Below are positions 21,726 to 44,040 of a stretch of DNA of 64,000 nucleotides, in pieces. Numbering within the stretch: position 1 is the first letter of the stretch; each line of letters begins with the position of its first letter. The notes beneath the pieces were generated by a model. It was not told where the DNA came from, did no database searches, and saw nothing but the letters and a program-made list of their open reading frames with translations. This stretch comes from Ichthyobacteriaceae bacterium (GTDB taxonomy: Bacteria > Bacteroidota > Bacteroidia > Flavobacteriales > Ichthyobacteriaceae): contig CBDDCQ010000001.1 in assembly GCA_965226285.1 (NCBI GenBank), positions 119,916-183,915 on the forward strand, written 5' to 3'. The position numbers and the translations under genes were made by a program.

Positions 21726-21907
21726 GTTGTAAATTGCTTTCAAAATCATATCTTTGCGGAGTATTCGCAACATAAGTAGTAGATTTTTTCAATGATAAGT
21801 TGTGAATTGCTTTCAAAATTTGTATCTTTTCAGAGTATTCGAAATCATTAATCATTATACCGTTGTAATTTGCTTTCAAAATTGTATCTTTGCAGAGTAT
21901 TCGCAAA
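21726..21907 (+). CRISPR. Degenerate 3-repeat CRISPR remnant
   Basis: Three decayed copies of the main repeat lie at 21726-21771, 21799-21845 and 21862-21907, in the same orientation. The spacers between them are 27 and 16 nt. Confidence 0.85.
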
Positions 21908-23265: not shown

Positions 23266-23335
23266 AAGTATTAAATATTTTTTTGATAAATTAATTATGG
23301 AGTATTGCAAATTTACAACAAAATAATTTAAATAA

Positions 23336-26300
23336 GTTGTAAATTGCTTCAAAATTTGTATCTTTGCGGAGTATTCGCAACGTTACTTTTGTGTTGTTCG
23401 GCTGAAGTTTAGTTGTAAATTGCTTCAAAATTTGTATCTTTGCGGAGTATTCGCAACGATGGCATAATGATAAAGTTTGCATCCCTGGTTGTAAATTGCT
23501 TCAAAATTTGTATCTTTGCGGAGTATTCGCAACAAATTCGGAACATTATTTATCATGATATGGTTGTAAATTGCTTCAAAATTTGTATCTTTGCGGAGTA
23601 TTCGCAACCAAAGGAGGGTAAAGGAGCTAAGGGTTTAAGTTGTAAATTGCTTCAAAATTTGTATCTTTGCGGAGTATTCGCAACCTGAAAATAATGACAT
23701 CTTAATTACATAGTTGTAAATTGCTTCAAAATTTGTATCTTTGCGGAGTATTCGCAACTTATTATCGGCATTGTATTTTATATTACCGGTTGTAAATTGC
23801 TTCAAAATTTGTATCTTTGCGGAGTATTCGCAACAGTTTTCTATTGTTTCTAAGAACGGGGCAGTTGTAAATTGCTTCAAAATTTGTATCTTTGCGGAGT
23901 ATTCGCAACCTATTTCTTTACCTCTAAAACCTGCCTTTAGTTGTAAATTGCTTCAAAATTTGTATCTTTGCGGAGTATTCGCAACATAGTAATTATACTT
24001 ATGTTTGCCAAATCAGTTGTAAATTGCTTCAAAATTTGTATCTTTGCGGAGTATTCGCAACTTATATTGAATGAATACTACTACTTGATAGTTGTAAATT
24101 GCTTCAAAATTTGTATCTTTGCGGAGTATTCGCAACTACTGAATATCCCTAATAAAATACTACTATGTTGTAAATTGCTTCAAAATTTGTATCTTTGCGG
24201 AGTATTCGCAACTCCGTATATGTGGTATGATTTCTTAGTGTAGTTGTAAATTGCTTCAAAATTTGTATCTTTGCGGAGTATTCGCAACTGCCTTTGTAAA
24301 GGGCAAAGCAAGTTGGGAGTTGTAAATTGCTTCAAAATTTGTATCTTTGCGGAGTATTCGCAACTGCCTTTGTAAAGGGCAAAGCAAGTTGGGAGTTGTA
24401 AATTGCTTCAAAATTTGTATCTTTGCGGAGTATTCGCAACTTTCAGTTAGGATTTGGAAAACTGCGAAAAGTTGTAAATTGCTTCAAAATTTGTATCTTT
24501 GCGGAGTATTCGCAACTAATACGAAAAAGGTAGTAACTTCTGCGGGTTGTAAATTGCTTCAAAATTTGTATCTTTGCGGAGTATTCGCAACAATTCGCAT
24601 GGTTGGGATGATGTCGTAATCGTTGTAAATTGCTTCAAAATTTGTATCTTTGCGGAGTATTCGCAACTTCGGTAAATTTATGTAAATAGTTATAGCAGTT
24701 GTAAATTGCTTCAAAATTTGTATCTTTGCGGAGTATTCGCAACCCAAGTCAAAAGCATATCAACTACGGGCTAGTTGTAAATTGCTTCAAAATTTGTATC
24801 TTTGCGGAGTATTCGCAACTGTAAATTGTTCAAACGTGCCATCTACATTGTTGTAAATTGCTTCAAAATTTGTATCTTTGCGGAGTATTCGCAACAAATT
24901 ATGGAAACATATAAAGATGCAAATGGTTGTAAATTGCTTCAAAATTTGTATCTTTGCGGAGTATTCGCAACAAGAAGGTTTTAGAGAATGAAATATCTGC
25001 GGTTGTAAATTGCTTCAAAATTTGTATCTTTGCGGAGTATTCGCAACTAACCAAACAGGAGATAGAAGAATTAACTAGTTGTAAATTGCTTCAAAATTTG
25101 TATCTTTGCGGAGTATTCGCAACAAGAAGTTAGGAAAACTACCTATGACGCATGTTGTAAATTGCTTCAAAATTTGTATCTTTGCGGAGTATTCGCAACG
25201 CAAGCAAGCAGGCAAGCAAGCAGGCAAGCGTTGTAAATTGCTTCAAAATTTGTATCTTTGCGGAGTATTCGCAACTAAAATACCTAATCAAAAAACACCT
25301 ATAGGTTGTAAATTGCTTCAAAATTTGTATCTTTGCGGAGTATTCGCAACGAAAGAAAGTAAGTAATTTGAGGAGAGGGGGTTGTAAATTGCTTCAAAAT
25401 TTGTATCTTTGCGGAGTATTCGCAACTTTTTAATAAAATATGAAAGCAACATTAATGTTGTAAATTGCTTCAAAATTTGTATCTTTGCGGAGTATTCGCA
25501 ACTTAATATTGTTTGCCTTCTACCTCCTGTAAGTTGTAAATTGCTTCAAAATTTGTATCTTTGCGGAGTATTCGCAACATATATTTGAGATAGTACATGC
25601 AACGGGGTGTTGTAAATTGCTTCAAAATTTGTATCTTTGCGGAGTATTCGCAACAAATATGAGCCACAGAAACGCCCCTTAAAGGTTGTAAATTGCTTCA
25701 AAATTTGTATCTTTGCGGAGTATTCGCAACCAGTCTTAATATTAACTCTTAATGTATCAGTAGTTGTAAATTGCTTCAAAATTTGTATCTTTGCGGAGTA
25801 TTCGCAACACACACCTTATTCTTACCTTCCAAGAAAGTGTTGTAAATTGCTTCAAAATTTGTATCTTTGCGGAGTATTCGCAAACAATGGTGATTTTAGG
25901 AGTGCTGAGAGTATAGTTGTAAATTGCTTCAAAATTTGTATCTTTGCGGAGTATTCGCAACCTGAGCACTCTTAAACTGCATATTATGCGTGTTGTAAAT
26001 TGCTTCAAAATTTGTATCTTTGCGGAGTATTCGCAACTACAGGAGTAGCAATTATAGTCTTATCATTGTTGTAAATTGCTTCAAAATTTGTATCTTTGCG
26101 GAGTATTCGCAACACTAGTCGTTAATATCTGTTACCGTGTATGGTTGTAAATTGCTTCAAAATTTGTATCTTTGCGGAGTATTCGCAACATCGTATGGAA
26201 AATCCTGTTTTAGCACTTAGCGTTGTAAATTGCTTCAAAATTTGTATCTTTGCGGAGTATTCGCAACTATTTTGATATTATTTCTTCTTGTGAAATGTTG

Positions 26301-29300
26301 TAAATTGCTTCAAAATTTGTATCTTTGCGGAGTATTCGCAACCTTCATTGATTAAATAATAAAATATCTAAAGTTGTAAATTGCTTCAAAATTTGTATCT
26401 TTGCGGAGTATTCGCAACAAATTACAATAATCCTGTTCAAAAACTACGTTGTAAATTGCTTCAAAATTTGTATCTTTGCGGAGTATTCGCAACTCTTTAT
26501 AATCTAAAGGTATAGGGGGCTCAGGTTGTAAATTGCTTCAAAATTTGTATCTTTGCGGAGTATTCGCAACTTTTAGAGAAAAACACAAATGATTATGGTA
26601 GTTGTAAATTGCTTCAAAATTTGTATCTTTGCGGAGTATTCGCAACTGAGTGTGCGCTTTGTTACGAGAGTTTAGAGTTGTAAATTGCTTCAAAATTTGT
26701 ATCTTTGCGGAGTATTCGCAACATTATTCATATTTAAATATTTTTTTAATTAGTTGTAAATTGCTTCAAAATTTGTATCTTTGCGGAGTATTCGCAACTG
26801 TACCCAAGTATTGCATCAAAAGAACGAGTTGTAAATTGCTTCAAAATTTGTATCTTTGCGGAGTATTCGCAACTACCATTTATAATTGGTGAAAGGTCAT
26901 TCAGTTGTAAATTGCTTCAAAATTTGTATCTTTGCGGAGTATTCGCAACAGTAAGACTACTGCTATCACCAACCTCACTGTTGTAAATTGCTTCAAAATT
27001 TGTATCTTTGCGGAGTATTCGCAACTTGCAGAAGGAATTTAATTTTATAAACGCAGTTGTAAATTGCTTCAAAATTTGTATCTTTGCGGAGTATTCGCAA
27101 CCTTTAAGCCAATTATGATATTTATGAGAAAGTTGTAAATTGCTTCAAAATTTGTATCTTTGCGGAGTATTCGCAACTTATTAATCATCATTTTATGTCA
27201 TCATAGGGTTGTAAATTGCTTCAAAATTTGTATCTTTGCGGAGTATTCGCAACAAAAACAACAGAGAGAAGGTGGTGTTGATTGTTGTAAATTGCTTCAA
27301 AATTTGTATCTTTGCGGAGTATTCGCAACTCACTATAATGAACAGTGACACCATATTTAGTTGTAAATTGCTTCAAAATTTGTATCTTTGCGGAGTATTC
27401 GCAACATATAAGAGGCGATTTAATGTTATCGTATAGTTGTAAATTGCTTCAAAATTTGTATCTTTGCGGAGTATTCGCAACAAACAGGGATATTTGGATA
27501 TATGGTTTAGGGTTGTAAATTGCTTCAAAATTTGTATCTTTGCGGAGTATTCGCAACTGATTTTTTAAAATAAAATGACAAATGTAGTTGTAAATTGCTT
27601 CAAAATTTGTATCTTTGCGGAGTATTCGCAACAAAAATTATATGAACTTATTTTTGAAATAAGTTGTAAATTGCTTCAAAATTTGTATCTTTGCGGAGTA
27701 TTCGCAACTTTATTGATAGAAGAATAATGTACACTTTAGTTGTAAATTGCTTCAAAATTTGTATCTTTGCGGAGTATTCGCAACACAATTTTAGATATGG
27801 TGATAGAATATTAGGTTGTAAATTGCTTCAAAATTTGTATCTTTGCGGAGTATTCGCAACTAAGAAGTCAACAAATACAAGTGATTAAGGTTGTAAATTG
27901 CTTCAAAATTTGTATCTTTGCGGAGTATTCGCAACAATAATAAAAGACAACACCAAAGATACAGGTTGTAAATTGCTTCAAAATTTGTATCTTTGCGGAG
28001 TATTCGCAACCACCATTTAATAGTTTAAATTCATCTCTTAGTTGTAAATTGCTTCAAAATTTGTATCTTTGCGGAGTATTCGCAACATTTAAAATTATAA
28101 TATTGATGTAATTTAGTTGTAAATTGCTTCAAAATTTGTATCTTTGCGGAGTATTCGCAACTTATTTTACATAAGACGGTGACGCAATGCCTATAGGTTG
28201 TAAATTGCTTCAAAATTTGTATCTTTGCGGAGTATTCGCAACAATATGTTATTTCAAAATGTGGTTATCAAAAATTAGGTTGTAAATTGCTTCAAAATTT
28301 GTATCTTTGCGGAGTATTCGCAACAGAGGCAATTACATCGTTCTTAGGGACTATTTTAGTTGTAAATTGCTTCAAAATTTGTATCTTTGCGGAGTATTCG
28401 CAACATATGATAGTTCATTAGTAACTGAATCCGCCTATTAGTTGTAAATTGCTTCAAAATTTGTATCTTTGCGGAGTATTCGCAACTAATATCTTAGCAA
28501 AGATAAGATACTTGTATTGAGGTTGTAAATTGCTTCAAAATTTGTATCTTTGCGGAGTATTCGCAACAAATAAGGCTCGTAATTATCCCTTGCCTACTGT
28601 TAGTTGTAAATTGCTTCAAAATTTGTATCTTTGCGGAGTATTCGCAACATGGAAGTGGCATCATCAGTGATTAATAAAACCATTGTTGTAAATTGCTTCA
28701 AAATTTGTATCTTTGCGGAGTATTCGCAACAGGGCTTTGGAGATATAATTTAGCATAGTACAGGGTTGTAAATTGCTTCAAAATTTGTATCTTTGCGGAG
28801 TATTCGCAACTATCCGTGTAGCTTTCTTTATAGAAGCATCTTAGAGTTGTAAATTGCTTCAAAATTTGTATCTTTGCGGAGTATTCGCAACAATAACTAT
28901 GCAACAACTAGAGGAGGTCTAGCCTTTGTTGTAAATTGCTTCAAAATTTGTATCTTTGCGGAGTATTCGCAACAACTCAAGGAAATACCCAATTTAGAAA
29001 CTATAGGTACTGTTGTAAATTGCTTCAAAATTTGTATCTTTGCGGAGTATTCGCAACGTTTGCTTCAAATGAATATTTAGAAGATATGTTGTAAATTGCT
29101 TCAAAATTTGTATCTTTGCGGAGTATTCGCAACAATGAGGAAAATAAGGGGCGCGAAAAGTGTGTTGTAAATTGCTTCAAAATTTGTATCTTTGCGGAGT
29201 ATTCGCAACATCATAAGAAATAAATACAGCAGTAGATGGTTGTAAATTGCTTCAAAATTTGTATCTTTGCGGAGTATTCGCAACCCGCCTCCTCAGCAGT

Positions 29301-31871
29301 AACCCCAACCTTTGGTTGTAAATTGCTTCAAAATTTGTATCTTTGCGGAGTATTCGCAACAAAAGTATAATCACGATAAAACAGGAGAAGGTTGTAAATT
29401 GCTTCAAAATTTGTATCTTTGCGGAGTATTCGCAACTATATAAAGCACTTGAAGTAAACGATGCAGTTGTAAATTGCTTCAAAATTTGTATCTTTGCGGA
29501 GTATTCGCAACAATGAGGAGAATAAGGGGGGCGAAAAGTGTGTTGTAAATTGCTTCAAAATTTGTATCTTTGCGGAGTATTCGCAACCATGGCAATGATT
29601 ATAACTCGTTCTTGTATGTTGTAAATTGCTTCAAAATTTGTATCTTTGCGGAGTATTCGCAACATTACTCTTCAATTCGTGTTTCTCATCTATGTTGTAA
29701 ATTGCTTCAAAATTTGTATCTTTGCGGAGTATTCGCAACACGGGATTATAAAAATATCTCGTAAAATGAGTTGTAAATTGCTTCAAAATTTGTATCTTTG
29801 CGGAGTATTCGCAACTCCTAACAGTATTAATATCAGGGAATTGTAGTTGTAAATTGCTTCAAAATTTGTATCTTTGCGGAGTATTCGCAACATACTGCCC
29901 AAATTAAAAATAGTGCGGTAAGTTGTAAATTGCTTCAAAATTTGTATCTTTGCGGAGTATTCGCAACAAAAATATGTATTTAATGATGAATACGGGGTTG
30001 TAAATTGCTTCAAAATTTGTATCTTTGCGGAGTATTCGCAACGAATACCGACCGTAAATAACTATTTCATAGTTGTAAATTGCTTCAAAATTTGTATCTT
30101 TGCGGAGTATTCGCAACTGCTTGATTACGATTACTGGTTTTCTCTAAGTTGTAAATTGCTTCAAAATTTGTATCTTTGCGGAGTATTCGCAACATTATAT
30201 GACATACCAGATAAGGTAACGTGTTGTAAATTGCTTCAAAATTTGTATCTTTGCGGAGTATTCGCAACATAATCGGGCAACTTTTGGGAAACCAGTGGAA
30301 GTTGTAAATTGCTTCAAAATTTGTATCTTTGCGGAGTATTCGCAACTACTTATTTTTAACAATGCAAGCTTTTTTATGGAGTTGTAAATTGCTTCAAAAT
30401 TTGTATCTTTGCGGAGTATTCGCAACTATTAGCGACAATTTGGCAAAATTGGTATGAGTTGTAAATTGCTTCAAAATTTGTATCTTTGCGGAGTATTCGC
30501 AACCTTCCTATAGATATATTCTTGAGTAACATGATGTTGTAAATTGCTTCAAAATTTGTATCTTTGCGGAGTATTCGCAACTTATATGTTAAATTTCAGG
30601 ACAAATATGAAGTTGTAAATTGCTTCAAAATTTGTATCTTTGCGGAGTATTCGCAACACGTTGAGTAAAATATATAAGTATGAGAAGTTGTAAATTGCTT
30701 CAAAATTTGTATCTTTGCGGAGTATTCGCAACTAAAGAGGACTGCAAATTAATTATAGGAAGTTGTAAATTGCTTCAAAATTTGTATCTTTGCGGAGTAT
30801 TCGCAACGAGCAGGAGCAGGAGCAGGAGCAGGAGGAGGTTGTAAATTGCTTCAAAATTTGTATCTTTGCGGAGTATTCGCAACAAGATGATTTTAAAATA
30901 GATAAACCAATAGGTTGTAAATTGCTTCAAAATTTGTATCTTTGCGGAGTATTCGCAACGAAGATACTATAATTACCATTTTGCTTGTTGAAGTTGTAAA
31001 TTGCTTCAAAATTTGTATCTTTGCGGAGTATTCGCAACTTGAATGAATTGAAGGATGGTCGTAAAGGGGTTGTAAATTGCTTCAAAATTTGTATCTTTGC
31101 GGAGTATTCGCAACAGATTGGATATTTAGGGTCCCCATTTTCAAGTTGTAAATTGCTTCAAAATTTGTATCTTTGCGGAGTATTCGCAACTAATGTTTTT
31201 TTTATTTACATGGGTCCATGGTTGTAAATTGCTTCAAAATTTGTATCTTTGCGGAGTATTCGCAACTGTACCTATTACTTTGATAAACTATTAATAGTTG
31301 TAAATTGCTTCAAAATTTGTATCTTTGCGGAGTATTCGCAACCATTATTATTAACGCTTTCAATAGTTTACAGTTGTAAATTGCTTCAAAATTTGTATCT
31401 TTGCGGAGTATTCGCAACTATTTAAGTTATAAGATGTTAATACTTTAGTTGTAAATTGCTTCAAAATTTGTATCTTTGCGGAGTATTCGCAACTTATCAT
31501 TTCTCGTCTTTGGATGTTATGAGTTGTAAATTGCTTCAAAATTTGTATCTTTGCGGAGTATTCGCAACTATATATCTTATATATAGGTACAGGGAGGGTT
31601 GTAAATTGCTTCAAAATTTGTATCTTTGCGGAGTATTCGCAACGAAGAAACCCCTAAACTACACCAATACTAGTTGTAAATTGCTTCAAAATTTGTATCT
31701 TTGCGGAGTATTCGCAACAAAGAGGGAAGTAGCAATCTTAACTGAAAGGGTTGTAAATTGCTTCAAAATTTGTATCTTTGCGGAGTATTCGCAACAAAAC
31801 TAAATCAACAGTAGTTTTACGGGAGGTTGTAAATTGCTTCAAAATTTGTATCTTTGCGGAGTATTCGCAAC
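23336..31871 (+). CRISPR. Type II-C CRISPR array, 112 repeats / 111 spacers
   Basis: The 46-nt repeat is GTTGTAAATTGCTTCAAAATTTGTATCTTTGCGGAGTATTCGCAAC. The hand count was checked arithmetically: 112 x 46 plus the summed spacers equals 8536 nt. Spacers are 28-38 nt with a mode of 30. The plus-strand sense is inferred from tracrRNA complementarity. Confidence 0.98.
23337..23366 (+). promoter_or_regulatory. Repeat-embedded promoter motif (example in repeat 1; present in every canonical repeat)
   Basis: Repeat positions 2-4 are TTG, followed by exactly 19 nt, then positions 24-31 TAtcTTTG. This matches the Bacteroidetes -33/-7 consensus. Confidence 0.45.
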
Positions 31872-31970: not shown

Positions 31971-32327
<357 letters not shown>

Positions 32328-33215
32328 TTATATAAATTTTGGATATAGGATTTTTCTAGATACTCCTTTAAAGCATTCATACAGTGAATTTGTAGTTCTA
32401 CTAGAGGCTATCATCAGTGGACTCTGTTTATTTCCGATCATAACATCCATGGTAATAATTTGTAATAGATGTTTTTTATGTTCTATAGTAAGTTCTTCAT
32501 AATTTTGATTATCTACAAAATCACAAACCAATCTATCTACAAATGGACGGTAGGGTTCCATAATATCATCAGCTAAGCAATAGGCATTATATTTATTTTT
32601 ATGAAATATTCCCAATGTAGGAAGTAAACCACTACTCACTAAAGAACGAGCAATTAAAGCTCTAAGTATAGCATATCCATAGTTGAGTAAGCCATTGGGC
32701 ATTTCTTCATTTGGTCCTCTTATAAATTCCATTTTAAAGATTTGCTTCCAATAGTAAACAGCTGATCTGGCTTCTTGATTCTTAGGATCTCCACTGGTAA
32801 TTCTCTCTGCCCAATACAGCATATTGTCGTGAGGAATACCTCTTTGTTTTAGAAGTTCTGCTTGGTTTTTAATTTTTGCTACTACAGTTTGTTTCCATAA
32901 ATTTTTTTTAAGGGTTTTAGTAGCAGAGATTTGATATTTGAATCTTTCACTTTGTTCAGTATGCGCATCTAATGGCATAAGTAATCCAATAGGATGGTGA
33001 CTTGCGTCACAATTGATAAGGGCTACATTGTTTTGAGTGATTTTTTCTAATAGTTTATTGGTAATGGTAATTTGAGGATGTTCTAAAACAATAAAACCAA
33101 TATCTTCTATGGGGACTTGTTTTTTGACTCCATCATTGGGATAGTTTACTACTAATTGCTCATTTTGGGTACTCAAGTAAGCAGGGTTACCAAAAAATAA
33201 AGTCTTTTTTACCAT
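32328..33215 (-). CDS. cas1: CRISPR-associated endonuclease Cas1 (type II)
   Basis: 295 aa with typical type II Cas1 segments: LNYGYAILRA, LPTLGIFHKNKYNAYCLADDIMEPYRP. Confidence 0.96.
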   Translation of the reverse strand: MVKKTLFFGNPAYLSTQNEQLVVNYPNDGVKKQVPIEDIGFIVLEHPQITITNKLLEKITQNNVALINCDASHHPIGLLMPLDAHTEQSERFKYQISATKTLKKNLWKQTVVAKIKNQAELLKQRGIPHDNMLYWAERITSGDPKNQEARSAVYYWKQIFKMEFIRGPNEEMPNGLLNYGYAILRALIARSLVSSGLLPTLGIFHKNKYNAYCLADDIMEPYRPFVDRLVCDFVDNQNYEELTIEHKKHLLQIITMDVMIGNKQSPLMIASSRTTNSLYECFKGVSRKILYPKFI

Positions 33216-33276: not shown

Positions 33277-36200
33277 TCAAACTTTTGATGACTCAGAGTA
33301 TTTCACATTTTTGTGATGGTTGTTTACTTCTACAATTTTTCCTAATCGGTTTATCCGTACCTTTATTGCTTTAGTTAAAGGATGTTTATCTTTGTTTTTT
33401 ATATTAGGCAGACTCTTTACTACATAATAACAAATTCCTTTTAAATCTTCATTAGTATGATGGTTTTTTCCACTAACTACTCTTTCTCTATCTACATTAG
33501 TTTCTAAGTGGCTTCTAAAATAGTAATCCTTAGAACTAATTTTTTGCACTCTAAATAAATGTTTGCTGATTTCTTGAAAATTATTAGGATCCGTAAGGTC
33601 AATCTCTTGGGGATTAAATTCATCGTTACCAAATATAAAATAGTCATTCTGAGCTATACTAAATAAAAACTTCCAACCCTTATCTCGATTTTTTATTTTA
33701 TCAATAATAGGTAAACCTTGTTTTTTTCTTTCTACAGTTTCCCAAAAACTTACTACTTCCTCCTGCCAATTTCCTTTTTCATCTTCATAAATTGCTATAT
33801 GTTGATTATTACGTGTTTGTACAAAGTCAGTCTGAATGATTTCTCCTTTGGTATTTTTCCTTTTGATAGGCTTGGCAGATGTAATTCCTGTTATAGAAAC
33901 TTTTTTAATTTGAATATTTTTTTCTTTGTTTAGGTAAATAGGGTTTTCTTCTAAGTTAGAGAGTGCTTTTTTCTTATCTCCATTGTACTGTTCAATTCTA
34001 TTTTGGAGGATTTTTTGGATGCCTTTATCTATTATTTTTTCAATCTTAAGGTCTGGTTTAACTTCTTTTCTAATGGTATAGATTTCTTTAAAAGTTACTA
34101 ATTTTACTTTTTCAGGAAGTGTCTTACCATTACAATCAAGGACAGGATTTTTAGTAAAGCTATTTTTACCCGAAAAGGCTTTTTTAAAGTTATTATTAAA
34201 TTCTTGTAATCTATTTATAAGGGCATTTTTATGCTTAAAGTTGGCTACAGAATTTATTTTATGTAAATCGAGTGTAGCATCTATTTTTTTTTGTTTAGTT
34301 TGATATCGTTTTATTTTTCTATACAAAGTATCTTTGTGTAAGGGACCTCTTGGAGTCAATACTACCTGTTTCTTAAACTTATTTTTATCTTTAATTTTAA
34401 TTTTATTAATATTTTTGGTTGCTGTTTTATTTTTAGCTTTAAATGATATTAACATATTTTCTAAAACTGATTTAGCTTCTCCTCTAAAATTTGGGAAGGG
34501 CTTCTTAAATCTTAGTTTATTTTTATGGTCTCGGTAAAGTTCTTTTTGTTCTATACCATAAATGCTACTAGTTTTGTTACTTTTGGCTTTCAAGTTATTT
34601 AAGTATTGTATATGGCTAGGTTTTGTAAATGCTACAATGAGTGCGTCCATAGCATGGTGTCTGTGGTCGTCTCGTTTTGCCCAGCCTTTTATTTTGTAAA
34701 TAGTATCTCCTTTTTCTCCTTTTTCAGTATTGGTAAGTCCTATCCTTTCATACTTGTCAAAATTAATTTCTTTCATAATATCTATCAATCCCCAGTCTTC
34801 TCTTAATCTATCAGTAACTTTTCCAGTAGTTGTATGCACTTTTTTACAAATATTACCTAATATTTGAATGGTTTTTTTAGCTATATACTGTGAATCTCTT
34901 AAGTCTCGTTCTATAAAATCTTCAGGTATTTCAGAAGATTTCATTCGTAATTTACTTCGTTTGGTTTTACTTATCAACTCTTTTTTATAAAATTCGTCAA
35001 CCCTATCTTTATACTGTTCAAACTCTGTTTCATTGTATTTATCTTTGAGAAAATCATAGGCAGTTTGGTCACTTTTATGCTGGTTTAATTTTCTTTCACA
35101 GAGTATTTTGTTAGAAAAAGAATCATCAAACAATTTTGCTGTAGGTATAATATGGTCAATATTGTATTTATTGGTAAATAGAGCGGATACTTTTATGGGT
35201 TTTCCTGTATAAATGGATATTCCTTTAGTCTCTTCCCAAAGTTTATAGCGAATAATATCATTTCGTGTAACCTTTTCAATCTTATATTCACTTTGTAATT
35301 TTTTTCTTATTTCTTCATTTTTTTTAGTAGCATCTCTAATATGAGCGATCATCTTTTTCCTATCTTCTTTACTCTGTTTAAGTTCTCTCGCAAGTTCTAC
35401 TCTTATTTCATCGGGCTTTCCGTATGTTTTTATAATTTCATTTACAGTGTTGATAGTTTGATTTAAGATTTTTTCTATTACAGGGGTTCTAAGCGCATTC
35501 TTGGGTAGTAAATCTAAAGTGTCTTTTATAGGTTTACTTTGTATTTGTTTTTTATTGAGCACGTGAGAATGATTGTATCCTGCTAATTGACATGCCTTAT
35601 CGTATGGGTATCCCTCTTTTAGATGAGGCAAAATTTTTCTAATAGCTCTAGCACTGAGATTCCCATAATCAGAATCTAACCTTATTTGAGTGAGTATTTT
35701 ACCATGAGATTTTTTAAATCCAAATTTTTCGTGAAGTTTTTGGATTAACTTTTCATTGTTTTCAATAGAATAAATGAGATGCCATAATTGAAAATAAGAT
35801 TGTTTATCAAAATCATTACCCCTTAGGTTACTATCAAAGTTTAAAACATCAGTATTGATATCTAAACTTTTAAATATTTTTGTTATAGTGTTTCTAATCT
35901 CATCAGCACTCATAGAGAAATCAAACTCATAGCCTTCTACATTTGAAATAGCTTGAAAAGCCTGATATAATAAATAATTTGTATGGTTTCCTTCTAAGTC
36001 TTCAAAGTTCAATTTCCAATTTCTCAGGTTGTATCCTAAAATTTTGAATATCTCTCTTTTAGAAAGACGGAATTTTAAATTGGCATGTTCAAAGAGAACT
36101 TGTTTAAGTTCCAAATCTAATTTTAGTTCTGTTTTATCTTTAACATTAGTAAAGGTGAGATCATTAATATTTTGCCAAATTTTAAATTCTTGAAATAGAG

Positions 36201-37566
36201 GAGAAGATTTGGAACATGCTTTATGGTGCTTTTCAAATTGACAGTCTGAAATAAGATGCTTACATGATTTTAAAGGTCTTTGATAAAAAATGATAGTATC
36301 TTTAATTTCTTTTTCTAATTTAGAATCTAGTTCATGATAGTGTTTCTTCTGTTCTTGCCAAATGGCATCGAATTCATTGATATAATCTTTTCGGTAGAAT
36401 ATTTGATTTCTTAGATTGGTATGTGGATTGCGTTCTATTTGTTCATATAAGTATTGCCCTATAGTTTTACCCTTAAAATGCAATTTTTTACTTCTATCAC
36501 TGATGATGCCTAAGTATTTACTCGCTTGATTGATTTGGCTATTAATTTCTATTAAAATGTAAGCTACTTGTGTAATGTCAAGTTGTTTGTTTAAAGCATC
36601 TGTACGGTAACTGTACTGTTGCAATTGTTTTTCATCACTTTTTCCTTTGGGTTCTGCAATATATTTTGTAGGTAAAATAATGTTTAGGCTGTTCTTAAAG
36701 AATTTCTCTATTTCATTTAATCTTACTTGTTGATTCTCAAAATAAGTTTCTTTGGCTTTGGCGGTTAAAATTTTGGGGTATTTATCTTTTAATTCCTCCC
36801 ATTTTTGAAGAGCGTTATTTTTAAATTCTTGTACAAAAATAGACCTAAAAGCACTCGCAGTTTGTGTCCTATTTAATCCGTATAAGTCTTTTTTGAGTTT
36901 ATCGGTCAATATATTGGGATAAAACTCTTGTTGAAAATCGAATATAATATCAAATTCCCTTTGCAGATCAGATTTATAAAATACAGGAACTTCATAAGTT
37001 TTCTTTTCTTTTTTTCGTTCCTGTATCTTTTGTAATACATATTGTCCTATGGTTATATTTTGATCTTTTAATATTTTAGCAATTTCAATATTATCTATAG
37101 CTTGTCCTAAATCTTCGGAATTATCTTTCTTTCTATTACTTTTATATCCTCGTTTCTTGTTAATTGAAAGTAGTACTCTTACAAAATCTACCTTAGATAA
37201 TTGCTCATTGGGGGCTTTAGCACGAAGTTTTAGTAATTGATGAGTAGTTTTTTTTCCTTCTTCTCTAAGTATGTGATCGTTATTTATAAAACCTATCTTT
37301 TTAAAGGTATTTATAATACGTTGCCTTCTTAATTTGTAACGGAAATTATTTCTTCTTGAACTTCTTTTTAAAGTTCTTTCAGCATTGATGGTAATGCTAT
37401 TGCCTTTTTCAAAGTTATTCTTTTCATCAATAGTAAGAGACACTACTCTTACACCACCATCAATAATTTTAGAATTTTCTCTATTTTCATGCTCTTCTAC
37501 AACTGACCATCCAATAGTAGTTGTTCCCAAATCTAATCCGAGTATTTTTTTATGCACACTATCCAT
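33277..37566 (-). CDS. cas9: Type II-C Cas9 (cas9-1, intact)
   Basis: 1429 aa. RuvC-I ILGLDLGTTTIGWSVV, RuvC-II IRVELARE, HNH YNIDHIIP...NKILCERKLNQHKSDQ, RuvC-III HHAMDALIVAF. No csn2 or cas4 is present in the locus. Confidence 0.97.
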   Translation of the reverse strand: MDSVHKKILGLDLGTTTIGWSVVEEHENRENSKIIDGGVRVVSLTIDEKNNFEKGNSITINAERTLKRSSRRNNFRYKLRRQRIINTFKKIGFINNDHILREEGKKTTHQLLKLRAKAPNEQLSKVDFVRVLLSINKKRGYKSNRKKDNSEDLGQAIDNIEIAKILKDQNITIGQYVLQKIQERKKEKKTYEVPVFYKSDLQREFDIIFDFQQEFYPNILTDKLKKDLYGLNRTQTASAFRSIFVQEFKNNALQKWEELKDKYPKILTAKAKETYFENQQVRLNEIEKFFKNSLNIILPTKYIAEPKGKSDEKQLQQYSYRTDALNKQLDITQVAYILIEINSQINQASKYLGIISDRSKKLHFKGKTIGQYLYEQIERNPHTNLRNQIFYRKDYINEFDAIWQEQKKHYHELDSKLEKEIKDTIIFYQRPLKSCKHLISDCQFEKHHKACSKSSPLFQEFKIWQNINDLTFTNVKDKTELKLDLELKQVLFEHANLKFRLSKREIFKILGYNLRNWKLNFEDLEGNHTNYLLYQAFQAISNVEGYEFDFSMSADEIRNTITKIFKSLDINTDVLNFDSNLRGNDFDKQSYFQLWHLIYSIENNEKLIQKLHEKFGFKKSHGKILTQIRLDSDYGNLSARAIRKILPHLKEGYPYDKACQLAGYNHSHVLNKKQIQSKPIKDTLDLLPKNALRTPVIEKILNQTINTVNEIIKTYGKPDEIRVELARELKQSKEDRKKMIAHIRDATKKNEEIRKKLQSEYKIEKVTRNDIIRYKLWEETKGISIYTGKPIKVSALFTNKYNIDHIIPTAKLFDDSFSNKILCERKLNQHKSDQTAYDFLKDKYNETEFEQYKDRVDEFYKKELISKTKRSKLRMKSSEIPEDFIERDLRDSQYIAKKTIQILGNICKKVHTTTGKVTDRLREDWGLIDIMKEINFDKYERIGLTNTEKGEKGDTIYKIKGWAKRDDHRHHAMDALIVAFTKPSHIQYLNNLKAKSNKTSSIYGIEQKELYRDHKNKLRFKKPFPNFRGEAKSVLENMLISFKAKNKTATKNINKIKIKDKNKFKKQVVLTPRGPLHKDTLYRKIKRYQTKQKKIDATLDLHKINSVANFKHKNALINRLQEFNNNFKKAFSGKNSFTKNPVLDCNGKTLPEKVKLVTFKEIYTIRKEVKPDLKIEKIIDKGIQKILQNRIEQYNGDKKKALSNLEENPIYLNKEKNIQIKKVSITGITSAKPIKRKNTKGEIIQTDFVQTRNNQHIAIYEDEKGNWQEEVVSFWETVERKKQGLPIIDKIKNRDKGWKFLFSIAQNDYFIFGNDEFNPQEIDLTDPNNFQEISKHLFRVQKISSKDYYFRSHLETNVDRERVVSGKNHHTNEDLKGICYYVVKSLPNIKNKDKHPLTKAIKVRINRLGKIVEVNNHHKNVKYSESSKV

Positions 37567-37579
37567 ATTATAGCAAAAT

Positions 37580-37666
37580 AATAAAAAAGCGACAAATGAA
37601 ATTTGCCGCTTTCAAATGTTTTCACAACGGAATAATCCTTATTGTGAATTGCTTCAAAATTTCAAC
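37580..37666 (-). ncRNA. tracrRNA copy A
   Basis: The minus-strand RNA is UUGAAAUUUUGAAGCAAUUCACAAUAAGGAUUAUUCCGUUGUG...GCGGCAAAUUUCAUUUGUCGCUUUUUU. Its 22-nt anti-repeat is complementary to repeat positions 1-22 (one mismatch, one GU pair). It has a nexus-like hairpin and a terminator hairpin plus U6. A -7 box TAtaTTTG lies at 37670-37677. Confidence 0.85.
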
Positions 37667-37716
37667 TTGCAAATATAGATTTATTTTTTCTTTTTTCGTG
37701 TTTTTTTTTCTTTTTT

Positions 37717-37822
37717 CAATAATTTCAGAATTTTCTCTATTTTCATGCTCTTCTACAACTGACCATCCAATAGTAGTTGTTCCCAAATCCAATCCGAGTA
37801 TTTTTTTATGCACACTATCCAT
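37717..37822 (-). pseudogene. Orphan cas9 N-terminal fragment (first ~35 codons)
   Basis: It encodes MDSVHKKILGLDLGTTTIGWSVVEEHENRENS, identical to the cas9-1 N-terminus, then runs into upstream-flank sequence. Confidence 0.9.
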
Positions 37823-37839
37823 ATTATAATAGCAAAATA

Positions 37840-37917
37840 ATAAAAAAGCGACAAATTTGCCGCTTTAAATGTTTTCACAACGGAATAATCCTTATTGTGA
37901 ATTGCTTCAAAATTTCA
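37840..37917 (-). ncRNA. tracrRNA copy B
   Basis: Same anti-repeat and nexus as copy A. The terminator loop is shortened (GCGGCAAAUUUGUCGC plus a U run). A -7 box lies at 37922-37929. Confidence 0.8.
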
Positions 37918-38196
37918 ATTGCAAATATAGATTTATTTTTTCTTTTTTCGTGTTTTTTGTTTCTTTTTTTAAGCCAATGTATCGTTTCTGTGCGGTGTTG
38001 AGCTTGGCAACATTGCAAATACGTTAATCCGTTTTGCCAGCCTCATTGCAAAAAAAGCATGTAATTCAATGTTTACGGGCGATCATAGTGTTTTTAGAAT
38101 ATTTTTTTTAGTATCTCTCATGCAAGTTCTATTAAAAATGAAACAGTTGATAGGGTAATTTTAGGAACTATCCCAATACTCATTTTATATCTCATA

Positions 38197-38231
38197 TTGG
38201 ATAATAGATACAGTAAATTAGAAACAATTAT
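38197..38231 (+). pseudogene. Fragment of cyoE (matches 43257-43291) at the duplication junction
   Basis: TTGGATAATAGATACAGTAAATTAGAAACAATTAT versus cyoE TTTGGGAATAGATACAGTAGATTGGAAACAATTAT. Hand alignment gives 30 of 35 identical. Confidence 0.6.
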
Positions 38232-41200
38232 TCATACTTATGCACATTTTTGTGAGGGTTGTTTACTTTTACAATTTTTCCTAATTGGTTTATCCGTACC
38301 TTTATTGCTTTATTTAAAAGATGTTTATCTTTGTTTTTTGTATTAGGCAGGCTCTGAATTCTATACTTACAAATTCTTTCTAAATCTCTATTTACAGTAG
38401 TTTCTAAATGGTTTCTAAACCTGTAATCGTTAGAACTAATACTTTGCACTCTAAATAAATGTCTGCTGATTTCTTGAAAATTATTAGGATCCGTAAAGTC
38501 AATATCTTGAGGATTAAATTCATCGCTACCAAATATAAAATAGTCATTAATGAGCCATACTAAATAAAAACTTCCAATCCTTATCCCGATTTTTTATTTT
38601 ATCAATAATAGGTAACCCTTGTTTTTTTCTTTCTACAGCTTCCCAAAAACTTACTACGTCTTCTTGCCAATTTCCTTTTTCATCTTCATAAATTGCTATA
38701 TGGTGATTATTACCTGTTTGTACAAAGTCAGTATGAGTAATTTCTCCTTTGGTATTTTTCCTTTCGATAGACTCGGCAGATGTAATTCCTGTTATAGAAA
38801 CTCTTTTAATTTGAATATTTTTTTCTTCGTTTAGGTAAATAGGGTTTTCTTCTAAGTTAGAGAGTGCTTTTTTCTTATCTCCATTGTATTGTTTAATTCT
38901 ATTTTGGAGGATTTTTTGGATGCCCTCATCTACTATTTTTTCAATATTAAGTTTTGGGTTAACTTCTTTTCTAATGGTATAGATTTCTTTAGAAGTTACT
39001 AATTTTTCAGGAAGTTTCTTACCATCATCATCGAGAATACGATTTTTAGTAAGGTTCTTTTTAGAAAAGGCTTTTTTAGGTTCATTATTAAATTCTTGTA
39101 ATCTCTTTTTAAGGGCATTTTTATGCTTAACGTTGGCTATAGAATTTATTTTATCTAAATTGAGTTTATCATCTATTTTTAGTTTTTTAAAAATTACTAA
39201 TTTTTCAGGAAGTTTCTTACCATTACCATCGAGGATAGGATTTTTAGTAAGGTTATCTTCAGAAAAGGCTTTTTTAGGTTCATTATTAAATTCTTGTAAT
39301 CTCTTTTTAAGGGCATTTTTATGTTTATCGTTGGTTATAGAATTTATTTTATCTAAATTGAGTTTATCATCTATTTTTAGTTTTTTAGTTTCATATTGTT
39401 TTATTTTTCCATATAAAGTTTCTTCGTGTAAGGGACCTCTTGGAGTCAATACTACTTGTTTCTTAAACGTATTTTTACCAAACTCATCTTTACATTTAAT
39501 TTTATTAGTATTTCTGGTTACTGTTTTATTTTTAGCTTTAAATGATATTAAAATTTTTTCTAAAAATAATTTAGCTTCTCTTCTAAAATTTGGGATGGGC
39601 TTCTTAAATATTAGTTTCTTTTTTTTAGTGTCCCAGTAAAGTTCTTTTTGTTGTATACCATAGATGATACTATTTTTGTCACTTTTGGCATTCAAATTAT
39701 TTAAGTATTGTATATAACTATGTTTTGTAAATGCTACAGTGAGTGCGTCCATAGCATGGTGTCTGTGGTCGTTTCGTTTTGTCCAGTCTTTTATTTTGTA
39801 AAGAGTATCTCCATGTTTTCCTTTTTCAGTATAAGTAAGTCCTAACCTTTCATACTTGTCAAAATTAATTTCTCTCATAATATCTTCCAATCCCCAGTCT
39901 TTTCTTAATCTATTAGTAACTTTTCCAGTAGTTGTATGCACTATTTTACAAATATCACCTAATATTTGAGTAGTTTTTTTAGCTATATATTGTGAATTTC
40001 TTAAGTCTCGTTCTAAAAAATCTTTAGGTATTTCAGAAGATTCCCTTAGCAAGTTCTCTTTTTTGGTTTCACTTATCAACTCTTTTTTATAAAATTCTTC
40101 AACCCTATTTAAATACTCTTTAAACTCTGTTTCATTGTATTTATCTTTGAGAAAATCATGGGCAGTTTGGTTACTTTTATCTTGGTTTAATTTGCTTTCA
40201 CAGAGTGTTTTGTTAGAAAAAGAATCATCAAACAATTTTGACTTAGGTATAATATGTTCAATATGGTATTTATTGGTAAATAGATCGCATCGTTTTATGA
40301 GTTTTCCTGTATAAATGGATATTCCTTTAGTCTCTTCCCAAAGTTTATCACGAATCTCATCATTTCTTGTAACCCTTTCAATCTTATATTCACTTTGTAA
40401 TTTTTTTCTTATTTCTTCGTTTTTGTTAGTAGCATCTTTAATATGCTGGGTCGTTTTTTCCCTTTCTTCTTTACTCTGTTTAAGTTCTCTCGCAAGTTCT
40501 ACTCTTATTTCATCGGGCTTTCCGTATGTTTTTATAATTTCGTTTACAGTGTTGATAGTTTGATTTAAGATTTTTTCTACTACGGGGTTTCTAAGCGCAT
40601 TCTTGCGTAGTAAATCTAAAGTGTCTTTTGTAGGTTTATTTTCTATTTGTTTTTTATTGAGCGCGTGAGAGTGATTGTATCCTGCTAATTCACATGCCTT
40701 ACTGTATGGGTGTCCCTCTTTTAGATGAGGTAAAATTTTTCTAATAGCTCTAGCACTAAGCTTTCCATAATCAGACTCTAACCTTATTATTTGAGCGAGT
40801 ATTTTACCATGAGGTTTTTTAAATCCAAATTTTTCGTGAAGTTTTTGGACTAACGTTTCATCGTTTTCAACAGAATAAATGAGATGCCATAATTGAAAAT
40901 AAGGTTGTTTATCAAAATCATTCCCCGCTAAGTTACTATCAAAGTTTAAAACATCAGTATTAATATCTAAACTTTTAAATACAGTGTTTATTTCTGTTCT
41001 AATCTCAGCAGCACGCCTTTTAGAAAAATCCAATTCCCATTCTCCTTTTTTTAAAATATAAAAATCAAACTCATGGTCTTCTTCTTTTAAAATAGCTTGA
41101 AAAGCATGACATAATGAATGATTTGTACGGTTTCCTTCTAAGCCTTTATCTTTATCTTTAAGTTTCAATTCCCAATCTTTTGGGTTGTATCCTAAAATTT

Positions 41201-42704
41201 TGAATATCTCTTTTTTAGAAAGACGGGATTTTAAATTAGCATGTTCAAAGAGATCTTGTTTACGTTCCAAATCTAATTTTAGTTCGCTTTTATCTTTAAC
41301 ATTAGTAAAGGTAAGATCATTAATATTTTGCCAAATTCTAAATTCTTGAAATAGAGGAGAAGATTTGGGACATGCTTTATGGTGCTTTTCAAATTCACAA
41401 GATGAAATAAGATGCTTACAAGATTTTAAAGGTCTTTGATAAAAAATGATAGTATCTTTAATTTCTTTTTCTAATTTAGAATCTAGTTCATGATAGTGTT
41501 TCTTCTGTTCTTGCCAAATGGCATCGAATTCCTTGATATAATCTTTTCGGTAGAATACTTGATTTCTTAGATTGGTATGTGGATTGCGTTCTATTTGTTC
41601 ATATAAGTATTGCCCTACAGTTTTATCCTCAAGATGCAATTTTTTACTTCTATCACTGATGACACCTAAGTGTTTACTAACTTTATTGATTTGGTTATTA
41701 ATTTCTATTAAAATGTAAGCTACTTGTGTAATGTCAAGTTGTCTGTTTAAAGCATCTGCACGGTAAGTGTACTGTTGCAATTGTTTTTCATCACTTTTTC
41801 CTTTGGGTTCTGCAATATATTTTGTAGGTAAAACAACGTTTAGCTTGCTGTTAAAGAATTTTTCTATTTCCTCTAGTTTTATTTTTGGATTCTCAAAATA
41901 AGTTTCTTTGGCTTTGGCGGTTAAAATTTGGGGGTATTTATCTTCTAATTCCTCCCATTTTTGAAGAGCGTTATTTTTAAATTCTTTTACAAAAATAGAC
42001 TTAAAAACGTTCGCAGTTTTTTTCTTATTTAATCCGTCTAATTCTTTTTTGAGTTTATCGGTCAATATATCGGGATAAAACTCTTGTTGAAAATCGAATA
42101 TACTATCAAATTCCTTTTGCAAATCAGATTTATAAAATGCAGGAACTTCGTATATTTTCTTTTCTTTTTTTCGTTCCTGTATCTTTTGTAATACATATTG
42201 TCCTACGGTTATATTTTGATCGTTTAATATTTTAGCAATTTCAATACCATCAACAGCTTGTCCTAAATCTTCAGAACTCTTTTCTTTTCTATTACTTTTA
42301 TATCCTCGTTTCTTGTTAATTAAAAGTAGTACTCTTACAAAATCTACCTTAGATAATTGCTCATTGGGGGCTTTAGCACGAAGTTTTAGTAATTGATGCT
42401 TAATATTCTCTACTTGTATGTAGTCGTTATTTATAAAACCTATCTTTTTAAAGGTATTTATAATACGTTGCCTTCTTAATTTGTAACGGAAATTACTTCT
42501 TCTTGCACCTCTTTTTAAAGTTCTGTCAGCATTGGTGGTAATGCTCTTGCCTTTTTCAACGTTATCCTTTTCATCAGTAGTAAGAGGCACCACTCTCACA
42601 CCACAATCAATAATTTTAGAATTTTCTTCATTTTCATCTTCTTGCACCAAAGCCCAACCGATACTATTTGTTCCCAAATCTAATCCAAGTATTTTTTTAT
42701 GCAT
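38228..42704 (-). pseudogene. cas9: Second cas9 paralog (cas9-2), frame-shifted near the 3' end
   Basis: The 1385-aa ORF (38547-42704) is collinear with cas9-1. The remaining 106 codons of the C-terminal domain continue in another frame (38228-38548). RuvC and HNH motifs are present (ILGLDLGTNSIGWALV, YHIEHIIP, HHAMDALTVAF). Confidence 0.85.
38996..39391. repeat. In-frame 198-bp tandem duplication inside cas9-2
   Basis: 38996-39193 and 39194-39391 are near-identical. They encode two copies of KLKIDDKLNLDKINSI.N.KHKNALKKRLQEFNNEPKKAFS..NLTKN.ILD..GKKLPEKLV. cas9-1 has one copy. Confidence 0.9.
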
Positions 42705-42731
42705 ACGATATAAGAGTTATTAGTTAAAATA

Positions 42732-42825
42732 ATAAAAAAGCGACAAACGCCATTTGCCTGACATTTGCCGCTTTAAAATGTTTTCACAACGGAATAATCC
42801 TTATTGTGAATTGCTTCAAAATATT
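42732..42825 (-). ncRNA. tracrRNA copy C (upstream of cas9-2)
   Basis: The anti-repeat ATTGTGAATTGCTTCAAAAT (plus sense) is identical over 20 nt and diverges after that. The terminator stem carries an insertion (GCGGCAAAUGUCAGGCAAAUGGCGUUUGUCGC plus U6). A -7 box lies at 42830-42837. Confidence 0.75.
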
Positions 42826-43085
42826 AATGCAAATATAGATTTATTTTTTCTTTTTTCGTGTTTTTTTATTTTTTTTTTAGCCAGTTGTATCATTTCTGTG
42901 CAGTGTTGAGCTTGGCAACATTGCAAAAAAAGCCTGTAAGTCAATGTTTACGGGCGATCATAGTATTTTTAGAATATTTTATCTTTCGTATCTCTCATGC
43001 AAGTTCTATTTAAAAATGAAACAGTTGAGAGGGTAATTTTAGAAACTATGCTCATGTATTCGTTTTATATTTCAGAAGTATTATT

Positions 43086-43093
43086 TATCTTTG
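43086..43093 (+). promoter_or_regulatory. Candidate -7 box for the cyoE/cox operon
   Basis: TAtcTTTG lies 42 nt upstream of ATG 43135. Confidence 0.35.
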
Positions 43094-43134
43094 CCACTTG
43101 AAAAAATTAAAGATATTCTTTTTATTCTGATGAT

Positions 43135-44040
43135 ATGAAATGCAAAAATATAGTGAAACAGGATACATCTTTTAAAACCATGCTTTTAGATCTTAAACAA
43201 ATTACAAAATTTGGATTGACTATAAGTGTTGTATTTTCAGCTTTGATAGGTTACCTTTTGGGAATAGATACAGTAGATTGGAAACAATTATGCACACTTG
43301 TAATAGGAGGTTATTTGATGGTAGGGTCATCTAATACCTTCAATCAAGTAATAGAAAGGGATAGAGATAAGGTAATGAAACGAACTAAAAACAGACCTAT
43401 TCCCGCAGGAAGAATGTCTGTAAATACAGGACTTATGATTGGTTTTTTATGTGCTACACTTGGGCTGTATTTGCTTTATTTGATCAATGTTAAAACTTTC
43501 ACGTTGGGCTTTATTTCCATGCTTATATATGTATTGGCATATACCCCTTTGAAAACTAAAACGCCTCTTTCAGTACTTGTGGGAGCATTTCCTGGTGCTA
43601 TTCCTTTTGCATTGGGTTGGGTTGCAGCTACAGATAGATTTGATGAAGTTGGCTTATTTCTTTTTCTCTTTCAGTTTTTATGGCAATTCCCCCATTTTTG
43701 GGCAATTGCTTGGTTGCTCGATGAAGATTATAAAAAGGCAGGGTTTAAACTTTTGCCTACAGGAAAAAAAGATAATATTGCCGCTTTGCAAATATTTTTA
43801 TATACCTTGATTATGATCCCAGTATCACTGTTTCCTGCATCAGGTTTACTAAAAGGATTAAATTTATCTGGTGTTTCTGGAATATTGGTGTTTTCACTGG
43901 GCTTATATATATTGTATTATGCTATAAAAATGATTAAGGAAAAGACTAATGCTACTGCAAAAAAAATGATGCTCATGGCAGTAATATATTTGCCTTTAGT
44001 ACAATTGGTATATATTATTGATAAAGTTTTTAACAGATAA
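43135..44040 (+). CDS. cyoE: Protoheme IX farnesyltransferase (heme O synthase)
   Basis: 301 aa, a polytopic UbiA-family protein. Motifs NQVIERDRDKVMKRTKNRPIP and FLWQFPHFWAIAW. Confidence 0.93.
   Translation: MKCKNIVKQDTSFKTMLLDLKQITKFGLTISVVFSALIGYLLGIDTVDWKQLCTLVIGGYLMVGSSNTFNQVIERDRDKVMKRTKNRPIPAGRMSVNTGLMIGFLCATLGLYLLYLINVKTFTLGFISMLIYVLAYTPLKTKTPLSVLVGAFPGAIPFALGWVAATDRFDEVGLFLFLFQFLWQFPHFWAIAWLLDEDYKKAGFKLLPTGKKDNIAALQIFLYTLIMIPVSLFPASGLLKGLNLSGVSGILVFSLGLYILYYAIKMIKEKTNATAKKMMLMAVIYLPLVQLVYIIDKVFNR

Follow-up and report, generated by a model that had tools for sequence, protein, structure and literature searches.

To our knowledge, type II CRISPR-Cas (clustered regularly interspaced short palindromic repeats, CRISPR-associated) loci carry one cas9 as a rule. 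Canonical type II-C loci of Bacteroidota encode a Cas9 of ~1350-1450 aa and have a cas9-cas1-cas2 gene set without csn2 or cas4, a trans-activating CRISPR RNA (tracrRNA) directly upstream of cas9 on the same strand, and a long repeat (46-47 nt). Here we describe a locus from an Ichthyobacteriaceae bacterium that shares these features but has two cas9 genes and three tracrRNAs for one adaptation module and one array. It lies within a 64,000-nt stretch of contig CBDDCQ010000001.1 (the window, to which all coordinates refer). The product of the downstream gene, cas9-1, shares 49-51% identity with Flavobacterium Cas9s; among solved structures, Chryseobacterium CbCas9 (PDB 8IYQ) is the nearest. We favor, with a probability of about 60%, the reading that the effector module was genuinely duplicated in tandem long ago, that the upstream copy, cas9-2, has since been inactivated, and that the upstream slot has been swapped between strains.

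More than one Cas9 per cell is reportedly found in Streptococcus thermophilus, where CRISPR1 and CRISPR3 are separate loci with their own cas1/cas2, array, repeat, and tracrRNA. In the window, by contrast, the two cas9 paralogues lie side by side, their tracrRNA cores are identical, and there is one array. Immune hotspots exchange effector or defence genes; they have conserved flanks, strain-variable cargo, and elevated amino-acid substitution. Unlike in hotspots generally, the cargo exchanged here is the single-protein effector of a CRISPR system that the strains otherwise share, and we found no description of cas9 exchange of this type in the literature searched. In Ligilactobacillus salivarius NCK1355, a frameshift-split cas9 is annotated as two cas9 genes, and the function of the product has been tested (PMC11288051). 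A single-base indel interrupts the cas9 frame there as it does here, but the NCK1355 genes are halves of one cas9, whereas two full-length paralogues are present in the window and the frameshift costs one of them its C-terminal ~7% (PMC11288051). The CbCas9 system has a PcrIIC1-like accessory gene (PMC13153721, citing Zhang et al. 2024); none is present at the window locus.

The arrangement is rare. An earlier note on this DNA, made from the sequence alone, had proposed a survey of related genomes for copy number. In a scan of the GTDB collection (one genome per species) that yielded 80 related Bacteroidota type II-C loci with 44-51% identity, none had a second cas9; at least 5 kb was available upstream of cas9 in 66 of these loci and at least 5 kb downstream in 41. 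A Joint Genome Institute (JGI) metagenome scan recovered no close relative. Natural tandem cas9 pairs were absent from the literature searched, which yielded engineering papers and a single frameshift-split cas9; this is a weak negative given the incomplete coverage of the search.

Locus organization

We analyzed the window using blastn, global nucleotide alignment, tblastn with three-frame translation, Pfam, and Foldseek. Judged from its sequence, the locus is a type II-C CRISPR-Cas system with a duplicated, diverged effector module. Pfam HNH_4 and RuvC_III match both cas9-1 and cas9-2, all PDB matches are Cas9, and the closest relatives are annotated as type II Cas9. Also as expected of type II-C, we found only cas1 and cas2 for adaptation, a tracrRNA anti-repeat, and an adjacent array. 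The single cas1-cas2 pair recorded in the earlier note was recovered (cas1, 32328-33215; cas2, 31971-32324); these are the only open reading frames (ORFs) of at least 80 aa between cas9-1 and the array, without csn2 or cas4. One large array accompanies the two cas9 genes and ends 100 nt from cas2. All cas genes are on the minus strand. In their direction of transcription the order is flank C, tracrRNA C, cas9-2, a ctaB remnant, flank B, tracrRNA B, a cas9 5' stub, tracrRNA A, cas9-1, cas1, cas2, and the array. The far flank of the locus holds ctaB/cyoE and a COX3 gene. The features are as follows, in that order.

43135-44040, plus strand: ctaB/cyoE-like gene of the UbiA prenyltransferase family (Pfam UbiA, E 3e-56)
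42835-43134, minus strand: flank C, the original intergenic region from tracrRNA C to ctaB/cyoE
42734-42828, minus strand: tracrRNA copy C, with the anti-repeat/nexus core of A and B and a longer terminator hairpin
38547-42704, minus strand: cas9-2 ORF, 1385 aa, HNH motif HIEHIIP
39064-39261 and 39262-39459, minus strand: internal in-frame tandem duplication of cas9-2 (2 x 198 nt) in the WED/PAM-interacting region, just after RuvC-III
38543-38555, minus strand: frameshift site, a 1-nt insertion (GCTCATTAATGAC versus GCTCA-GAATGAC in cas9-1)
38228-38548, minus strand: rest of the cas9-2 C-terminus, out of frame (106 codons, PAM-interacting domain), homologous to cas9-1 residues 1307-1421
38203-38239, plus strand: ctaB/cyoE 5' remnant, 37 nt, 89% identical to 43263-43299 and overlapping the end of cas9-2
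37926-38227, minus strand: flank B, the duplicated intergenic flank (89% identity with flank C)
37842-37919, minus strand: tracrRNA copy B, inside the 256-bp duplication unit
37716-37969, minus strand: upstream unit of a 256-bp tandem duplication (partner 37460-37716, 94% identity)
37622-37822, minus strand: stub ORF, 66 aa, starting with the first 35 codons of cas9-1 (37716-37822)
37583-37666, minus strand: tracrRNA copy A, with anti-repeat, nexus hairpin, and intrinsic terminator
33277-37566, minus strand: cas9-1, intact, 1429 aa (HNH_4 and RuvC_III), HNH motif NIDHIIP
32328-33215, minus strand: cas1, 295 aa (the identical sister-contig protein matches PF01867 Cas_Cas1)
31971-32324, minus strand: cas2, 117 aa (the identical sister-contig protein matches PF09827 CRISPR_Cas2)
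23336-31871, plus strand: CRISPR array of 112 repeats, 46-nt unit GTTGTAAATTGCTTCAAAATTTGTATCTTTGCGGAGTATTCGCAAC, period 75-76 nt

Tandem duplication of the effector module

As the earlier note had proposed, cas9-1 and cas9-2 are collinear and arranged head to tail, with 89.5-90.3% identity (blastn) over three blocks spanning the genes. Global alignment gave 90.9% nucleotide identity. The proteins are 80.6% identical over 1404 aligned residues; the copies are clearly diverged, with about one residue in five different rather than the one in six estimated previously. Homology extends into the upstream flanks (38194-38044 versus 43074-42919, 89.7%; 38019-37716 versus 42927-42607, 82.8%; blastn). 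Each copy is indeed preceded by a tracrRNA and a homologous flank, but the count of tracrRNAs is three, not two.

The junction between the units is preserved. Alignment of the two genes ends at base 33304 of cas9-1, which pairs with 38243 in cas9-2; past base 38243 cas9-2 runs into sequence 89% identical to 43263-43299, in the interior of ctaB/cyoE. This ctaB/cyoE remnant abuts the shortened 3' end of cas9-2 and so marks the junction of a tandem duplication. Direct, collinear copies thus occur together with a junction in which the unit's distal end is fused to its proximal end, and the same junction is present on a second, independently assembled contig from a sister strain (below).

Via this event, a unit of ~4.9-5.1 kb would have been copied head to tail, comprising cas9 minus its last ~9 codons and the tracrRNA with its promoter flank. 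The unit would also have taken the first ~165 nt (to about codon 55) of ctaB/cyoE, and flank B would afterwards have lost ~180 nt, including the start of ctaB. Flanks B and C are 89% identical, and the synonymous divergence (dS) between cas9-1 and cas9-2 is 0.102. Because the flank divergence is close to the dS of the genes, genes and flanks appear to be of the same age, and a single duplication followed by parallel divergence fits both figures.

Present state of cas9-2

The earlier note had read cas9-2 as one ORF at 38228-42704. Instead, the ORF covers 38547-42704 and the gene is frameshifted: a single inserted T (near 38549) creates TAA TGA after codon 1385, and the remaining 106 codons continue in another frame to 38228. 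The public protein for the contig is the same 1385-aa product (P0002). This frameshift is the only frame-breaking lesion in cas9-2. The site is not in a long homopolymer, and the neighbouring genes in the window are unbroken.

We modelled the last 390 residues of Cas9-1 from a 26-sequence alignment (mean predicted local distance difference test score, pLDDT, 74.5). A Foldseek search paired the model with the C-terminal regions of CbCas9 (E 4.5e-13), Nme1Cas9, and SaCas9, and the modelled region would represent the WED domain and the domain that interacts with the protospacer-adjacent motif (PAM; PAM-interacting domain, PI). The frameshift falls at model residue 267 of 390, with the predicted loss of several beta strands; cas9-2 does not encode a complete C-terminal region of WED plus PI in one frame. 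The catalytic residues (RuvC-I D, RuvC-II E, HNH H/N, and RuvC-III H/D) are invariant in a 15-sequence alignment that includes cas9-2. From the model, we infer that the 1385-aa product would be unable to read a PAM and is most likely not an active nuclease.

The other structural differences described earlier, an insert in the recognition (REC) lobe, a duplication of ~66 aa, and a shorter C-terminus in cas9-2, are all present. The REC-lobe insert consists of 13 aa plus 4 aa, and the C-terminal shortening is a 13-aa deletion near the end of the protein. The internal duplication measures 64-66 aa (192 nt as an alignment gap, 198 nt as repeat spacing). Its two 198-nt units are nearly identical where they overlap, with a few differences, and the internal duplication is therefore recent. 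On sequence grounds, the frameshift looks recent as well. The second effector in the window is probably a recently inactivated allele. The working system would then consist of Cas9-1, any of the three tracrRNAs, and the single cas1-cas2-array set.

The 13-aa part of the REC-lobe insert, LKKGEWELDFSKR (40990-41040, residues ~548-565), repeats a neighbouring EFDF/ELDFSK motif. A short in-frame duplication of local sequence seems a likelier source than foreign DNA.

Divergence of the two copies

By the Nei-Gojobori method, nonsynonymous divergence (dN) between cas9-1 and cas9-2 is 0.098, giving dN/dS = 0.96. Despite this nearly neutral ratio, both frames stayed open. We scattered 383 substitutions with the observed spectrum over cas9-1; the simulation produced 281 amino-acid changes (273 observed) and ~20 stop codons, whereas none is observed. 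The frame stays open in just 1% of simulations with as few as 96 neutral substitutions (P = 0.01). Of the indels between the copies, 11 of 12 are multiples of three. The absence of stops and the in-frame indels indicate that both sequences stayed coding genes for essentially the whole of their divergence.

Amino-acid identity was nevertheless under weak constraint. Of the outgroup-invariant columns, 10% have changed between cas9-1 and cas9-2, compared with 1.5-2.8% in ortholog pairs of similar or greater divergence, and the gradient from conserved to variable columns is flattened (10-29% between the copies versus 1.5-60% in ortholog pairs). When changes were polarised with 15 outgroups, 53 were assigned to cas9-2 and 57 to cas9-1, so the intact copy has changed as much as the broken one. 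These patterns suggest strongly relaxed or diversifying constraint on both branches. One of the changes is in the HNH motif, where a conservative D-to-E substitution had been ascribed to cas9-2. The direction is the opposite: all 15 outgroup Cas9s have IEHIIPK, so E-H (cas9-2) is the ancestral clade consensus and D-H (cas9-1) is derived.

The alignment by domain that the earlier note had suggested as a check shows even identity between the copies, 74-89% across domains, with PI no more diverged than HNH. PI-specific divergence as a signal of PAM change was therefore rejected, and the idea raised earlier of PAM or target-range diversification finds no specific support, given the even divergence and the truncated PI domain of cas9-2. 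We also considered gene conversion between the copies and rejected it, as the longest identical run is 110 nt versus 68 expected (95th percentile 92) and there are no large tracts.

A sister strain with a different upstream cas9

An exact-protein look-up with Cas9-1 identified a sister contig (ENA ERZ25073751 ctg100454, L001; 57,270 bp, 5x coverage) that has two tandem cas9 genes and the same ctaB-remnant junction. Look-ups with Cas1, Cas2, CtaB, RecG, and P0002 gave only this contig or nothing. The two strains are nearly identical over most of the locus: cas9-1 differs at 1 nt in 4290, cas1-cas2 at 0 nt, flank C is 100% identical, and the ctaB-cox region is 99.5% identical. Flank B, however, is only 94.6% identical, and the upstream gene of the sister is an intact 1534-aa cas9 (P0090) with ~54% protein and ~62% DNA identity to both window copies. 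Its first 35 codons, unlike the rest of the gene, are 94.6% identical to cas9-2.

Because the junction is common to both strains, the tandem architecture predates the split of these haplotypes. The divergent upstream cas9 and flank B amid near-identity indicate that a tract from about nt 95 of cas9 through flank B recombined in one strain. The upstream position may thus act as a second-effector slot that is swapped by homologous recombination via its conserved flanks. Effector turnover by recombination, one of two possibilities mentioned in the earlier note, receives direct support from this ~54%-identical cas9 in the sister slot. The nearest relative of P0090 is P0007 (63% by BLASTP, 68% in a multiple alignment), from an ordinary single-cas9 locus, and no donor of the sister upstream cas9 was found in the collections searched. 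Another candidate, P0241, was set aside as an unrelated split cas9.

The sister array has both ends in common with the window array and differs in the middle. At 15975-17387 of the sister contig, ~15 repeats are reversed relative to all others in the array, and the spacers in its middle are not those of the window; this block may be a real inversion or an error in the 5x-coverage assembly.

tracrRNAs and the CRISPR array

The three tracrRNA copies (A, B, and C) share an identical 47-nt core of anti-repeat and nexus and differ solely in the terminator hairpin; each has a terminator-like site. Minimum free energies are -24.4 kcal/mol for A (z -3.9; terminator 37613-37585) and -32.6 kcal/mol for C (z -5.9). 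The end of tracrRNA A (37583) is close to the cas9-1 ATG (37566), which is 16 nt past the terminator U tract. Upstream of each tracrRNA is a TATATTTG box (37670-37677 for A, 42830-42837 for C), which fits the Bacteroidetes -7 box. A sigma-70 promoter scan is uninformative in Bacteroidota, and we used its terminator predictions alone. An Rfam search of 37400-43400 gave no tracrRNA family, with just two chance-level matches. Copy B, with a shortened terminator loop, and the 66-aa stub ORF were added by the 256-bp duplication, which is not present in the sister strain.

One mismatch aside, the anti-repeat is complementary to the ~21 nt at the 5' end of the CRISPR repeat. As this pairing is with the plus-strand repeat, the array would be transcribed towards cas2, converging on the cas operon. 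Every repeat (23336-31871) contains TATCTTTG on the strand predicted for the CRISPR RNA (crRNA), presumably an instance of the Bacteroidetes -7 promoter box TAnnTTTG. By analogy, this suggests repeat-internal promoters like those of other type II-C systems. Given the identical cores, any Cas9 from the locus would be expected to meet the same crRNA:tracrRNA duplex.

Alternative explanations

Several observations weigh against an old duplication in place followed by inactivation and slot exchange. The frameshift could be an assembly error. Cas9-1 itself carries radical changes (G159N, G1083R, G1252R, and H1255Q, the latter two altering TGNNHH to TRNNQH) at positions invariant in 15 relatives; its activity is not assured, and its activity or specificity may be altered. 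Over its first ~95 nt, cas9-2 departs from cas9-1 markedly more than it does elsewhere (74% identity in a 129-nt stretch that includes the start; 83.8% for the first 37 aligned codons), and its first 32 residues are identical to those of the sister strain's upstream Cas9. Since this start resembles the sister upstream gene and not cas9-1, part of cas9-2 has a mosaic history. Finally, two genomes of the lineage are present in the collections searched, with no single-copy relative among them, and the age and direction of events would be read from levels of divergence alone.

The mosaic start raises the possibility that cas9-2 was recombined in from a diverged strain with the same tandem architecture, in which case the ~10% difference is allelic divergence between lineages. 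We regard this as possible, though on balance improbable. Window and sister are near-identical outside the tract, 5.4% apart in flank B, and ~38% apart in the body of cas9-2; this difference between near-identical strains implies that at least one upstream unit was imported recently. The first 35 codons of cas9-2, which match the sister gene rather than cas9-1, are in keeping with import, as are the symmetric branch lengths expected of two functional alleles. However, the cas9 dS of 0.10 agrees with the divergence of flanks B and C (11%) in the same genome, which is what divergence in place predicts, dN/dS of ~1 is not expected of ordinary functional alleles, and no donor lineage was found in any collection searched. 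Alternatively, the locus could be a functional dual-effector system in which both Cas9s are active with one pool of crRNA and tracrRNA, providing a wider PAM range or escape from anti-CRISPRs, and the frameshift is either an assembly error or tolerated. Consistent with this are the lack of nonsense codons after 383 substitutions, the 11 in-frame indels of 12, the raised amino-acid change on both branches (dN/dS ~1), such as an arms race would produce, the unbroken second cas9 that the sister strain has at this position, and the anti-repeat and nexus identical in all tracrRNA copies. We nonetheless consider it unlikely: the assembled cas9-2 is missing ~106 PI residues, divergence does not cluster in PI, and the flattened conservation gradient is closer to relaxed constraint than to targeted positive selection. 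Nor is there a PAM to compare, since no protospacers emerged when the whole array was compared by megablast with 50,697 phage records.

Two further explanations are very improbable. The contigs are metagenome-assembled, and the two strains of the lineage on record are perhaps from the same study, so two strain haplotypes of a single-copy cas9 might have been joined in tandem during assembly. Such an artefact would not account for a junction holding a ctaB remnant, a ~180-nt deletion, and a flank just 89% identical, for the 12 indels between the copies and the internal duplication in cas9-2, or for a separately assembled second contig with the same junction and a different upstream gene. It is equally hard to credit that cas9-2 lost its function at the duplication and has simply been decaying as a pseudogene from then on. 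The frameshift, internal duplication, and dN/dS of ~1 would suit decay, but ~10 stops are expected on one branch and 0 are seen (P <=0.01 for a quarter of the substitutions), 9 of 10 coding-internal indels are in frame, and the intact cas9-1 branch is equally changed (57 versus 53). The counts of stops, indels, and branch changes already contradict long-term pseudogene decay.

Significance of the tandem cas9 locus

Tandem duplication with later inactivation and slot exchange thus remains our preferred account, and it leaves a locus whose tandem state is found in both strains and has lasted long enough for the copies to diverge by 9% in DNA. The two reading frames survived even as amino acids changed at about the neutral rate, and the upstream gene is radically different between otherwise near-identical strains. 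A more speculative proposal, which we hold to be doubtful, is that this is a natural two-effector II-C system: a resident Cas9-1 would be accompanied by a replaceable or diversifying upstream Cas9 cassette that uses a common guide pool and is kept for anti-CRISPR evasion or PAM width, and the frameshifted copy would be a transient loss-of-function allele. If the second slot is functional, it would represent natural effector redundancy or exchange within one CRISPR system, with both closely and distantly related Cas9s accepting the same guide RNA, and would bear on how Cas9 escapes anti-CRISPRs and changes PAM specificity. If it is not, the locus still documents the duplication, divergence, and loss of an effector gene in a single-effector system.

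Neighbouring features

The claim of a single array holds for the large 112-repeat array; a three-repeat relic array is also present, separated from the main array by one ORF.

21726-21907, plus strand: relic mini-array of 3 degenerate repeats (mismatch-tolerant repeat search and reading of the sequence)
22012-23352, minus strand: GT2-like ORF, 446 aa, between the relic mini-array and the main array

The remainder of the window is made up of chromosomal housekeeping genes. RecG of this bacterium has 61-63% identity with the proteins of Aquimarina, Joostella, and Cellulophaga, which by itself would place the host within Flavobacteriaceae or close to them. The ORF of 1084 aa at 2254-5508 has no convincing Pfam match; its sole match, RPAP1_C, is at the cut-off (27.5 versus 27 bits), and no domain stretch passes alone. 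A GH116-family glycosidase gene (18841-21666) adjoins the CRISPR locus. A GH116-family gene also occurs in an unrelated metagenomic contig (L088, 6644-9274) with a split cas9 of the P0090 subclade, a co-occurrence that could be chance or shared neighbourhood ancestry. The repeats of the relic mini-array are variants of GCTTTCAAAA with short spacers. The position of the GT2-like ORF would fit the insertion of a gene close to what was once the end of the array; this GT2-like gene also adjoins the array in the sister strain.

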